A stretch of DNA of 64,000 nucleotides from an archaeon. Its GTDB lineage: Archaea; Nanobdellota; Nanobdellia; Pacearchaeales; GW2011-AR1. The stretch lies in the NCBI GenBank assembly GCA_043821585.1, contig JBDRCQ010000009.1, positions 8,189-72,188 of the forward strand, in the 5' to 3' direction. This document shows positions 60,415 to 64,000 of this stretch, piece after piece. Every line of letters begins with the position of its first letter. Positions within the stretch are counted from its first letter, which is position 1. The notes beneath the pieces are model-generated. The model saw only the letters and a program-made list of their open reading frames with translations. It did not search any database and was not told the DNA's origin. The position numbers were made by a program, and so were the translations under genes.

Positions 60415-61365
60415 TTAGGATTGGAGTTGCCACCACATTTTTTCTTCGTAAACATTGAGGGAGTCTGAGGTCCCATCGCTATAAATAGTTCTGAGCGGCT
60501 CCCATGTCGGGCCATCTAAGCAGAATAATTGGACGTATTCATCAGCAGGCACTGGTTCTGTGTCGATTAGTATTTTGAACTGTAACTTGCCGTCATTTTG
60601 GCAGCGATTTATTTCGTCTGCGAGGCTTATATTTTGGTTGCCGATCCCAACGGTCCAGTTAGTTTGGCCTCCGTCTCCTGTAAACATAGCACCTGGCTCT
60701 ATTGAGTAGTTAACATAATATGTAGCTTTTTGGTTGGGGTCTGCGGTTCCTGCAGTCGTCCATTCAGTATCATTCACATTGCCACATGGGAAACCCGCTG
60801 CATCAGCCCATCCGCCCTCGCAACTGTATTCGTCCCCATTTTCTCGTTCTACCCAGCCGATTATTGTTGATATACATTTTATTGTTTGAGTGATTACTTT
60901 GTTAGAGCAAGGAACGAGCGCTCCTTTTTTGAATATCGCTGGTTGTACCTCCACTACAAAATCTTCTGCCGTAACTCCCGAAAGGCTTCCTACGTTATTG
61001 ATTATGAATTGTGTGTGTTCTCCTGGAGCGAGGGGAGAAAAGTCAGATGGGCCCTTGAGGAATAGCTCCTTTCCAGCGTTTATCTGTGGCCTTACGCCCA
61101 CCCCTGCCTCTGCGAACCTGATGAATACGCCAGTTATGTTAAATAGCCCTTTATTAATCATTTTTACGCCGACTGACCAGTCGGCCCTATTGCATCTCGC
61201 TTCTTCTATCGATATGCTAAGATCTGCGGGGCATTCTACTCTGTCCACTGGCAACCTGGCTTTTAGGAAAGGATAAACCATTGCCGAGAGGCCGATTGCT
61301 ATAACGACTAGCAAGGCATAAGAAACCATCATACTAACGCCTCTCTTCTTTTTGTGCATATTCAT
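60415..61365 (-). CDS. large pilin-like protein with extra C-terminal domain
   Basis: KKKRG|VSMMVSYALLVVIAIGLSAMVY class III signal; Cys pairs. Confidence 0.75.
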   Translation of the reverse strand: MNMHKKKRGVSMMVSYALLVVIAIGLSAMVYPFLKARLPVDRVECPADLSISIEEARCNRADWSVGVKMINKGLFNITGVFIRFAEAGVGVRPQINAGKELFLKGPSDFSPLAPGEHTQFIINNVGSLSGVTAEDFVVEVQPAIFKKGALVPCSNKVITQTIKCISTIIGWVERENGDEYSCEGGWADAAGFPCGNVNDTEWTTAGTADPNQKATYYVNYSIEPGAMFTGDGGQTNWTVGIGNQNISLADEINRCQNDGKLQFKILIDTEPVPADEYVQLFCLDGPTWEPLRTIYSDGTSDSLNVYEEKMWWQLQS

Positions 61366-61392
61366 CTTAATGGCTGAGTTTATTTAAAGATA

Positions 61393-61947
61393 TCATTCTT
61401 CTCTTGACGTCGCGACGAATTGTTCGCCTTGTCTTTCTTTCTTTAGAATTATGAAAAACATTTCTCCTGGTTTGACGTGGAAGGTGAAGCTAATTTCCTC
61501 TTCTTGACCTTTGTCTAGAACTATGGTTACAGAGTCGTCTCCGTTTAAATCGAATGTGGAGTTGTATTTTCTAATGTCTCCTGAATAAGTCACAACTTCT
61601 GATCCGCCTAAATCTACACCAATGCTTCCCGTGTCTTCGGTGGTGTAAAAAATTGCAGTCATTTCAGTCCTGTTGCCGAAAAGGATCATAAGATCAGAAC
61701 CGATGTTTGCAGAAGCATAATAGTCCGTTAGATTTTCTACGTGTTCGTTACGTTGTTCTTCGGTTAGAGCGTTGAAGATTCCGCTGTCAATCACCGAACC
61801 TGCTTCGTAATTTATTTCTTTTGTTAAGTCATAGACTGAAGAATCTTCTGAAGGTGTTTCTATTGTTGTGTAAACTGCGGAAAGTCCGAAAACTACTCCG
61901 ATGATGACTAACGCTGCGATAAGAAAGAATTGGCCCCTTTTGTTCAT
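61393..61947 (-). CDS. pilin-like protein (G|Q class III signal)
   Basis: MNKRG|QFFLIAALVIIGVVFGL. Confidence 0.72.
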   Translation of the reverse strand: MNKRGQFFLIAALVIIGVVFGLSAVYTTIETPSEDSSVYDLTKEINYEAGSVIDSGIFNALTEEQRNEHVENLTDYYASANIGSDLMILFGNRTEMTAIFYTTEDTGSIGVDLGGSEVVTYSGDIRKYNSTFDLNGDDSVTIVLDKGQEEEISFTFHVKPGEMFFIILKKERQGEQFVATSREE

Positions 61948-62106
61948 GAACAAAAGAGGGATTGGGCATTTTTATAGGTGGCGGTCTTTTGTTTCTTGAA
62001 GGGTTTTTTCGTGATAAGCAGGTGGCGAGAATTTGGCATTTATGATTTTTGTTATCGGTGGGAGGGGTTGCAACTTTTGAAGGTCAATGAGAGTCATCTT
62101 TTTATT

Positions 62107-62451
62107 TTAAGGTCCGACTGGTTCGTGATCGACGGGGTTTTTTGGTGGAAGAGGGGTGCAGATTATGTCTCCTTCTGGGTGTCCGGCACAAGGACTGCCA
62201 GAAGCACGGTGCCACTTACAAACAAGCTCTTGGTAGGGTTCCCCAAAAGGCCACCCGCTATAGGTCATAAGATAACAACCACACTTTTGGCTCCCACCGT
62301 TACCATCGCAAACATAACAAGTTCTTATATCTTCTGTGCAAGAGGGTAGCCACCCGGAAGAAAGTTGAGGTTCATCCTCTTGAACAAGCAAGAACCATCC
62401 AATAACCGCAAGAGCTAGTACGAGAATAACGAGCACATACTCTTTTTTCAT
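62107..62451 (-). CDS. small Cys-rich membrane-anchored/secreted protein
   Basis: N-terminal TM followed by 8 Cys in about 75 aa. Confidence 0.6.
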   Translation of the reverse strand: MKKEYVLVILVLALAVIGWFLLVQEDEPQLSSGWLPSCTEDIRTCYVCDGNGGSQKCGCYLMTYSGWPFGEPYQELVCKWHRASGSPCAGHPEGDIICTPLPPKNPVDHEPVGP

Positions 62452-62508
62452 TTAAATTTAAGGCAGGGTTTTTTTTTAAAGATTTCTATAAGGCTGGCTT
62501 GGCGTTAA

Positions 62509-62563
62509 CTTTGTTCATCCGTGCTGCGGACCTGCTCGCTTGCGCTGTGCGGTTCCTCGCTAG
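62509..62563. repeat. dispersed GC-rich intergenic repeat, copy next to the SRP RNA 3' end
   Basis: Shares 14-nt and 28-nt blocks with 6017-6065. Confidence 0.75.
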
Positions 62564-62575
62564 AATTCACAAAGT

Positions 62576-62837
62576 GGCACGGACAGGGAATTAGCTCAGC
62601 ATCAAACACGAAGCGACCTTGTGTCTTCCTCAGCTCTGCGACCCTACAAGCACCATACTTCCTACTTAGGGCTGCTCCGATCAAGGCCTGACCCGGTTCG
62701 CAAGAGTACGGTCGAATAGGACAAAGCCTCAACGTTAGACGCAAGACTCCGCGCTCTCAACTTCACGCGTTCCTTTAAGTCCACCGTAAAGCCCGTTTGT
62801 GAATGGCATGGGGCTAACATGCCGACTCGTCCGCACC
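62576..62837 (-). ncRNA. ffs: signal recognition particle (SRP/7S) RNA
   Basis: Minus strand has the helix-8 motif GAACCGGGUCAGGCC-UUGAUC-GGAGCAGCCCUAAG; terminal helix 5'-GGUGCGGAC / GUCCGUGCC-3'; Alu-like 5' region GGCAUGUUAGCCCCAUGCC; TATA-like ACTTAAAAA ~25 nt upstream. Confidence 0.88.
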
Positions 62838-62928
62838 GTTAAAACGAGCTGAGAAGGGTTTTTAAGTTTACCTGTGAGGAAACCCTTGCACCTCCTGTGC
62901 TCCGCTTCGGACGTGAGGGTTTTTAAGA

Positions 62929-63312
62929 TTAACTAAATGGTTGTTCTCTGTAATGAGCATGGCGGGGGGCCGTGTTCCTCGCCCCGAGTTCTGTGAAGTT
63001 TATAGTTGACCTTCCGGCAGGGGGCATCTCGGGAGGAAGGTTGATAATCAATTCTTGTCCAGGGTTTGCTATTTCATACGCTCTTGCTAATTTTATGGCT
63101 TCAGGCAAAAAAGATTCTCTGTAAAGATGAACTACATTCCCCTGAGAACTAAAAGCGGGTGCTAGACTGCCTGGAAGTATGTAATTAATTCGTGTTCCAT
63201 TTCCGTTATGGGCTGTCGCATTTGGAAACCTCTCTGAAATCAAAAGTTTTATGGAGGTTCTTGTCTTTGGCCCTTGGGAATCTGTGCAAGGCGTTCCTAA
63301 TGGGTCCCTCAT
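62929..63312 (-). CDS. hypothetical protein
   Basis: 127-aa ORF, TAATG-coupled to the upstream small ORF. Confidence 0.5.
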   Translation of the reverse strand: MRDPLGTPCTDSQGPKTRTSIKLLISERFPNATAHNGNGTRINYILPGSLAPAFSSQGNVVHLYRESFLPEAIKLARAYEIANPGQELIINLPPEMPPAGRSTINFTELGARNTAPRHAHYREQPFS

Positions 63313-63467
63313 TATTGGGAAATCTGCTCCTTGATTTTTTTTATGTCATCTTTAACCTTAAATCTCTTTTTTGGGGTCTTGGCTTCTGCAGATAAGATAA
63401 CTAAGAGTATGATTAGTACAGCTAGTAGAATAAAACTGCTAAAAAGCAGCATGAGTTCCAACACCAT
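63312..63467 (-). CDS. 51-aa single-TM membrane protein (below ORF-track cutoff)
   Basis: MVLELMLLFSSFILLAVLIILLVILSAEAKTPKKRFKVKDDIKKIKEQISQ; TTTTAAA box upstream; TAATG overlap. Confidence 0.55.
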   Translation of the reverse strand: MVLELMLLFSSFILLAVLIILLVILSAEAKTPKKRFKVKDDIKKIKEQISQ

Positions 63468-63511
63468 TGTCAGGTTACTTAAAATTGGTTTAAAAGATTA
63501 ACTGTATAGAA

Positions 63512-64000
63512 TTACATTTGTTCTAAAACGTCTATTCCGAGGAGAGTTAGGGCATTTTGGAGTACTTGGGAGAATGATTCGACTAAAGCAAGACCGAACT
63601 GTTCATTTTCTGACCCAATTATTTTATTTTTGTGGTAGAATTCATTGAATTGTTGCGCGATCTGGTAAGAATAATTTGCTATAAGATTTGGTGCGAGGTT
63701 TTTGTAGGCCCTTTCCACTATCTCTGGGAATTTTGATAACTCAGAGATTAGATTCTTTTCTGAGTTGTTTAGAGAATTTATAGTTAGTTTCTTTTTTGTT
63801 GGTTTTGATTTTCTTAGGATGCTTTTTGCTCTTGCATAAGTATAGAGGAGATAAGGCCCAGTGTTGCCTTCGAAAGACAGAAATTTTTCTACATTAAATA
63901 TTATGCTGTTCTCCCTGTAGTTTTTTAGGTCGCCGTAAAATATCGCAGCTAATGCGATTTTTAAAGAACGCCTTTCTAGTTCCTTTGCTGAGAGTTTTGG
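63512..64000 (-). CDS. argS: arginine--tRNA ligase, C-terminal part (runs off window)
   Basis: Open frame to the edge: AAIFYGDL...FLSFEGNTGPYLLYTYARAKSIL...FNEFYH...LLGI..LEQM. Confidence 0.93.
   Translation of the reverse strand, partial: PKLSAKELERRSLKIALAAIFYGDLKNYRENSIIFNVEKFLSFEGNTGPYLLYTYARAKSILRKSKPTKKKLTINSLNNSEKNLISELSKFPEIVERAYKNLAPNLIANYSYQIAQQFNEFYHKNKIIGSENEQFGLALVESFSQVLQNALTLLGIDVLEQM

Follow-up and report, generated by a model that had tools for sequence, protein, structure and literature searches.

The SRP RNA Gene and Its Host

The window, i.e., the whole 64-kb stretch of archaeal DNA that was analyzed, contains a single RNA detectable at curated Rfam thresholds. It is a match to the large bacterial SRP RNAs (Bacteria_large_SRP, RF01854; model positions 1-256) at positions 62579-62834 on the minus strand, with 64 bits against a gathering score of 60. 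With permissive thresholds, the archaeal family (Archaea_SRP, RF01857) matches the same locus over its full model (positions 1-317) with 86.9 bits and an E-value of 4.9e-20, but the gathering score of this family, 96.5 bits, is not reached. The latter match delimits an SRP (7S) RNA gene of 262 nt at positions 62576-62837 on the minus strand. A preliminary description, made from the letters of this DNA, had placed the gene at these coordinates with a length of ~262 nt and had proposed to score it with the two models; position and length are borne out, and both models recognize the locus, the bacterial one above and the archaeal one below its cut-off. RNAs that stay below the archaeal threshold or are labelled bacterial in this manner will be missed or misnamed during genome annotation.

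The gene is native to a Pacearchaeota-type archaeon (Nanoarchaeota class in GTDB), with a genome of 1.22 Mb in 22 contigs and an estimated completeness of 86.6%. The genomes with the closest SRP54 matches (87-89% identity) are those of Candidatus Pacearchaeota or Nanoarchaeota archaeon, and the host is, therefore, an archaeon and not the bacterium that would be expected for RF01854. A direct Pfam scan of the genome identified small archaeal ribosomal proteins, Alba, L7Ae, and LSM, and the archaeal ribosomal protein genes for L19e, L32e, and S8 are located on the same contig as the SRP RNA gene. It is an ordinary housekeeping gene, but its trimmed form is unusual and clade-wide.

A Rod Without Helix 6

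When folded as a single sequence, the RNA has an Alu-like domain on its 5' side, from which a single rod extends without branching and terminates in helix 8. The minimum free energy of this fold is -102.6 kcal/mol (z -2.86), and 2 out of 200 shuffled sequences folded equally well. The structure was further evaluated in an alignment of 30 sequences, in which the window's RNA is joined by 29 SRP RNAs encoded by genomes of this order, a comparison that the preliminary description had also suggested. RNAalifold predicts 59 pairs in this alignment, 50 of which show compensatory changes. After inclusion of five loop-loop pairs in the Alu domain, giving 64 pairs, 94.3% of the cells in the 30 sequences are paired, and shifting the partners by 1-3 columns lowers this value to 39-49%. 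Changes on both sides occur in 51 of the 64 pairs, and none of 500 shuffles reached the observed values.

According to the pair counts and mapped coordinates, helix 1 is formed by the 5' strand GUGCGGAC (62829-62836) and the 3' strand GUCCGUGC (62577-62584), both on the minus strand of the DNA like all elements described below, and compensatory changes are present at all eight of its pairs among the 30 relatives. The Alu or small domain (62778-62827) is complete. Its helices 2 (62824-62827/62778-62781), 3 (62818-62823/62805-62810), and 4 (62799-62801/62782-62784) all covary, and the tertiary pairs between its loops, AGCCC (62811-62815) and GGGCU (62790-62794), are 100% paired, with one C-G pair being replaced by U-A in five sequences. 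Thus, helix 1 and the entire Alu domain of the RF01857 family are present. The long helix 5, as defined by RNAalifold and the pair counts, has its 5' strand at 62701-62746 (sections 62738-62746, 62721-62727, 62716-62720, and 62701-62712) and its 3' strand at 62617-62664 (sections 62652-62664, 62643-62647, 62633-62639, and 62617-62625). Helix 8, the predicted SRP54-binding element (62669-62694), consists of the stems GGGU/GCCC and CC/GG, the symmetric loop CAGG/AGCA, and an apical loop, UUGAUC (62679-62684), at the position where GGAA is usually found. The stems of helix 8 covary, whilst none of the 30 sequences deviates at A149, G150, G163, C164, or A165; these include the conserved symmetric-loop nucleotides that, judged from sequence, would be contacted by the M domain of SRP54.

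What is lacking in this architecture is helix 6. RF01857 devotes 40 model columns to helix 6, after the 5' strand of helix 5 and before helix 8, but the window's RNA aligns only 2 nt to them. In the covariation analysis, all 11 pairs of distal helix 5 show compensatory changes, and they are followed on the 5' side by seven alignment columns and then by helix 8, a spacing found at the helix 6 site in each of the 30 sequences. In the window's RNA, the junction CGAACC (62695-62700) separates the last pair of helix 5 from the first pair of helix 8, and these 6 nt are the whole content of a site that carries the ~40-nt helix 6 in canonical archaeal SRP RNAs. Hence, helix 5 runs straight into helix 8, and no sequence is left to build helix 6. 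The preliminary description had reached the same view of an archaeal SRP RNA without helix 6, with an unbranched rod from the Alu domain to helix 8, and is confirmed in this by the Rfam alignment, the folds, and the covariation. It had named a helix 6 with a GNAR loop within 62700-62790, or a failure to score with any SRP model, as evidence against its view; no GNAR-capped hairpin like that in RF01857 is found in 62700-62790, and the SRP models do score. Also most of the pairings that it had drawn by hand are correct, and CCUAU/GUAGG, ACCGUACU/AGUAUGGU, and GCUUUGU/GCAGAGC were recovered by RNAalifold with the support of compensatory changes.

The RNA shares with the canonical archaeal SRP RNAs of RF01857, such as those of Methanocaldococcus jannaschii and Archaeoglobus fulgidus, helix 1, the Alu helices 2-4 with their loop-loop pairs, the long helix 5, the symmetric-loop nucleotides of helix 8, and an archaeal-type SRP54 as the partner. 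It differs from them by the absence of helix 6 and of SRP19, by UUGAUC instead of GGAA in helix 8, and by a score below the gathering threshold. The large bacterial SRP RNA of RF01854, i.e., the scRNA type of Bacillus subtilis, has the same Alu domain, helix 5, and helix 8 and also lacks helix 6, and its S domain carries one protein of the SRP54/Ffh type, as may, by analogy, be the case here. The Bacillus-type architecture claimed in the preliminary description is thus supported, also by the RF01854 score above the curated cut-off. In the Bacillus-type SRP, HBsu is the bacterial partner of the Alu domain. In contrast to RF01854 RNAs, the window's RNA belongs to an archaeon with an archaeal SRP54, and its sequence is nearer to the archaeal model.

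The permuted, circularized SRP RNA found in Thermoproteus (Plagens et al., 2015; PMC4731332) likewise departs from the archaeal canon and had been overlooked in annotation. The available part of that study describes a standard SRP19 and a helix 6 with a GNAR loop, and only the order of the gene is permuted. The claim in the preliminary description that helix 6 and SRP19 were lost together in the Thermoproteales is not supported by this report, as Thermoproteus keeps both. Conversely, the gene in the window is neither permuted nor interrupted.

Distribution in the Order and the Phylum

Within the order, 36 of 41 genomes yielded an SRP RNA match, with lengths of 258-272 nt. A larger sample from the phylum consisted of 150 genomes of a single class, with 149 reaching a completeness of 90% or more. 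An SRP RNA match was found in 141 of these, and 131 genomes exceed the cut-off of RF01857. The full-model matches measure 262-278 nt, except for three of 309-320 nt, and two genomes gave fragments only. Among the best-scoring 30 of the 141 matches, the central region has no room for helix 6, and UGUCC of helix 5 precedes GUCAGG of helix 8 by ~30 nt in all 30. Thus, the form without helix 6 is clade-wide. The preliminary description was right about the absence of helix 6 in a DPANN lineage but not about its being special to this lineage, since the trait is common to the SRP RNAs recovered from the order and the phylum.

Three genomes of genus g76 were missed by the prefiltered genome search, but direct cmscan runs revealed SRP RNAs of 260-282 nt, likewise without helix 6. 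Two of these three RNAs score best as Bacteria_large_SRP. In the one of genome G109 (L240:1447-1728, minus strand), the Rfam alignment places 19 additional nucleotides at the apical loop of helix 8. Searches with RF01857 and RF00169 at E ≤ 1 detected no SRP RNA in genomes G085, from the same family and 98% complete, and G050, a single contig of 0.5 Mb that is also 98% complete. Either these RNAs were missed by the prefilter, as in g76, or they are still more divergent.

No description of an archaeal SRP RNA without helix 6 was found in the open full-text literature, i.e., outside subscription journals. The review of Zwieb and Bhuiyan (2010; PMC2905702) reports, in its available part, SRP19 genes in all archaeal subgroups then known, coexisting with helix 6, and Nanoarchaea are not mentioned in that part.

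The Search for SRP19

The preliminary description had predicted that srp19 would be absent from the genome, and the gene was indeed not found, whereas SRP54 and FtsY are present. A six-frame search of this genome with PF01922 gave no matches at E ≤ 10, and no match above the cut-off was obtained in 41 genomes of the order, 121 of the class, and 151 of the phylum. Weak matches (E 0.03-0.13) in 4 of the 41 relatives are below the cut-off and lie within larger or broken frames. Since PF01922 did not detect SRP19 in the Sulfolobus control, the search was repeated with the NCBIfam model NF001973, which detects the protein in all four archaeal control genomes. Again, this genome gave no matches at E ≤ 10, and none of the 151 phylum genomes was above the cut-off. 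Seven of these 151 genomes gave weak matches of 13-18 bits, mostly within large open reading frames (ORFs). Two of them were inspected and are not SRP19: one is the N-terminus of EF-1alpha, and the other is a stack of overlapping GC-rich ORFs. A search of genome contigs with SRP54 led to close relatives and bacteria only, and SRP19 is lacking as well in five of the archaeal genomes matched with the lowest identity.

Because the genome search relies on a first-look filter, the ORFs of the whole genome were also scanned directly. Pfam hmmscan of 561 non-overlapped ORFs of 65-160 aa (thresholds of E ≤ 0.05 for the first 141 and E ≤ 0.02 for the other 420) revealed no SRP19, whilst the same scan did recover the small proteins mentioned above, i.e., ribosomal proteins, Alba, L7Ae, and LSM. 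An ORF of 127 aa next to the SRP RNA gene (62929-63312, minus strand) was considered as a hidden srp19 and rejected, as no Pfam family matches its product and a counterpart is missing beside the SRP RNA genes of 29 relatives.

The absence of SRP19 has an equivalent in published marker lists. PF01922.12 is among the CheckM markers that are universally missing in 152 Woesearchaeota genomes (PMC8421398), and it is listed likewise for the Parvarchaeales and Jingweiarchaeales (PMC10134863). The available parts of these two papers neither name SRP19 nor mention the SRP RNA. So far as these parts go, the protein half of the trait is already in print as an unnamed missing marker, and the RNA half is a new variant. 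A practical consequence is that SRP19 is unsuitable as a completeness marker for these genomes.

It could be argued that the minimal SRP is an artefact of detection, with SRP19 and/or helix 6 being present but too divergent to be recognized, or encoded in the unassembled 13% of the genome. DPANN proteins evolve fast. As the genome is 86.6% complete, the absence of SRP19 from this genome alone is not proven, and an SRP19 of very divergent sequence could escape, given that the prefilter overlooked genuine SRP RNAs in g76 and that PF01922 failed in the Sulfolobus control. Nevertheless, we consider this explanation very unlikely, because a mere 6 nt are found at the helix 6 site, with equally little in every relative that was read, which means that the binding site for SRP19 itself is gone. 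Moreover, two HMMs, the scan of 561 ORFs, and 150 near-complete genomes concur with the two published marker lists, as far as these are available. Genuine loss of both helix 6 and SRP19 is, therefore, preferred.

SRP54, FtsY, and the Origin of the Particle

The other protein components of the system are encoded in the genome. SRP54 has all three of its domains, N, G, and M, with matches to PF02881, PF00448, and PF02978. Its receptor, FtsY, exceeds the cut-off of TIGR00064 with 293 bits. Hence, all components of the holo-particle and its receptor are found except SRP19, as judged with PF01922 and NF001973. The srp54 and ftsY genes lie on the same strand of one contig, ~1.3 kb apart (G000:C4:22232-28067).

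The resemblance to the Bacillus-type RNA raises the question of whether the RNA, or the SRP as a whole, was acquired from bacteria, in which case the RNA would be a true bacterial large SRP RNA. It passes the curated cut-off of the bacterial family but not that of the archaeal one, and two g76 genomes have RNAs that score best with the bacterial model. In addition, SRP54 scores nearly equally on the NCBIfam models ffh (375 bits) and SRP54_euk (366 bits), both scores being under the cut-offs. In direct comparison, though, SRP54 is much closer to its counterparts in M. jannaschii (354 bits) and P. furiosus (346 bits) than to bacterial Ffh proteins (201-228 bits), and SRP54 is, by this sequence comparison, archaeal by descent, which speaks against the particle having come from bacteria. 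Furthermore, the bit score of the RNA itself is higher with the archaeal model (86.9 vs. 64 bits), the archaeal cut-off is passed in most of the phylum sample, and the gene shares its contig with the archaeal L19e, L32e, and S8 genes. Acquisition from bacteria is, therefore, the most improbable of the explanations considered, and the RNA is regarded as a native archaeal SRP RNA.

A Proposed Minimal Archaeal SRP

According to textbooks and the main review, the archaeal SRP consists of RNA, SRP19, and SRP54, and helix 6 and SRP19 always occur together. We propose that the RNA in the window is a native archaeal SRP RNA, that helix 6 and SRP19 were lost, and that SRP54 acts without them, a reading including both the loss and the mechanism to which we assign a probability of roughly 85%. 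Since both helix 6 and SRP19 are gone, the particle most likely consists of RNA and an archaeal-type SRP54 only, with FtsY. The RNA retains helix 1, the complete Alu domain, the long rod of helix 5, and the SRP54-binding helix 8. The M domain of SRP54 would bind the loops of helix 8 directly, without a clamp formed by helix 6 and SRP19, in the same way as Ffh binds the bacterial SRP RNA, and FtsY would serve as the receptor. This is the simplest mechanism given the invariant symmetric-loop nucleotides and the conserved M domain. The Alu domain may still act in elongation arrest, as its intact and covarying structure suggests that contact with the elongation-factor site of the ribosome is retained.

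Experimental precedents for such a particle have been described. In the available part of the review by Zwieb and Bhuiyan (2010; PMC2905702), archaeal SRP54 is reported to bind the RNA without SRP19, and deletion of the SRP19 gene in Haloferax caused no translocation defect, showing that the protein is dispensable. The particle proposed here would be the natural counterpart of this deletion, and a very large archaeal phylum as a whole appears to use RNA and SRP54 only. It also offers a test case for how helix 8 can be loaded with an SRP54 of the archaeal/eukaryal type when the clamp by helix 6 is missing.

Whether the trait is derived is a separate matter. The particle without helix 6 and SRP19 might represent the ancestral archaeal state, kept rather than reached by loss in this DPANN clade. 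The two-component particle would then be original in Archaea and have been preserved by the Nanoarchaeota and perhaps other DPANN lineages. The uniformity of the trait through the whole phylum sample and the identical architecture of large bacterial SRP RNAs are consistent with this possibility. If it were true, helix 6 and SRP19 would be later inventions, made in the line from which the other Archaea and the eukaryotes descend, and the large SRP RNA of the Bacillus type would be close to the one in the last universal common ancestor. Such an origin is, however, unlikely. SRP54 of these organisms is of the archaeal/eukaryal type, and DPANN lineages are known for gene loss. In addition, SRP19 is present together with helix 6 in eukaryotes and in all other archaeal groups covered in the available part of the 2010 review (PMC2905702). 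Secondary loss, probably no later than the root of the phylum, is preferred.

Variation and Intron-Like Inserts in Helix 8

The apical loop of helix 8 is variable in the order. A loop of the xUGAxx type, such as UUGAUC in the window, is found in 18 of the 30 sequences, and GGAA in the other 12, whereas 29 of the 30 sequences read from the phylum have GGAA or GGGA. The window's RNA thus lacks the GNRA tetraloop, usually GGAA, that is characteristic of RF01857. In bacteria, the apical loop of helix 8 matters for docking to the receptor, and therefore the function of a non-GNRA loop may differ. In canonical archaeal RNAs, an adenosine in the helix 8 loop pairs with the loop of helix 6 under SRP19, according to the available part of PMC2905702. 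Freedom from this contact may have permitted the apical loop to change.

The three long SRP RNAs of 309-320 nt in the phylum sample belong to genus g103 of the same class. They were considered as possible keepers of helix 6, but their additional 37-46 nt are located within GGUCAGG of helix 8 and not at the helix 6 site. These intron-like inserts are found at L154:320-356 (minus strand) in genome G180, at L155:321-366 (minus strand) in G160, and at L156:354-398 (plus strand) in G216; a sister species (L157) has no insert. Each contains a 4-bp helix, CUGG/CCAG, with a 3-nt bulge on either side of it, UCA on one strand and AGA on the other, and the adjoining helix of 7-9 bp covaries among the three genomes. 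Cleavage after the second nucleotide of each bulge is predicted to restore GGUC+AGG and an RNA of 269-274 nt. The inserts have the appearance of SRP RNA introns of the bulge-helix-bulge type. Their predicted removal resembles the processing of the Thermoproteus RNA, for which the available part of PMC4731332 describes the tRNA splicing endonuclease acting at a bulge-helix-bulge site. This permuted gene was the only relative of such an intron found in the full-text literature.

Putative Transcription Signals and Neighboring Sequences

A putative promoter-like element, CTTAAAAACCC, can be read from the sequence at positions 62856-62866 (minus strand), and a TATA-like TTAAAAA is located at -28 to -22 relative to the predicted 5' end of the RNA. 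The element GGGTTTTTAAG, which reads CTTAAAAACCC on the minus strand, or a close variant of it, is present in three copies within 500 bp, i.e., at 62856-62866, ~62915-62928, and ~62463-62480. Each copy lies upstream of a feature on the minus strand, i.e., the SRP RNA gene, a 55-nt spacer with a UUCG-type hairpin, and a 114-aa ORF, respectively, and the three elements are probably promoter boxes. In runs of RNA libraries, at most 0.12 of the sampled words were found. Contigs from RNA libraries of four studies match positions 62594-62825 with 88-100% identity, mostly in the conserved core of helix 8, but as their flanks differ, they stem from relatives and are silent on the ends or the level of this RNA.

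No tRNA gene was found by ARAGORN in 61500-64000, and an Rfam search of 62838-63520 at E ≤ 1 gave nothing credible; a snoRNA-like match at 62846-62902 scores only 14.5 bits. The 127-aa ORF discussed above is situated directly upstream of the SRP RNA gene in a stretch of 45-51% G+C. It has no Rfam match either and may be an orphan gene or non-coding. Elsewhere in the window (60415-61953, minus strand), two ORFs of 316 and 186 aa, which match no Pfam family, encode N-terminal hydrophobic segments, and their products may, to judge from these segments, be secreted or pilin-like.
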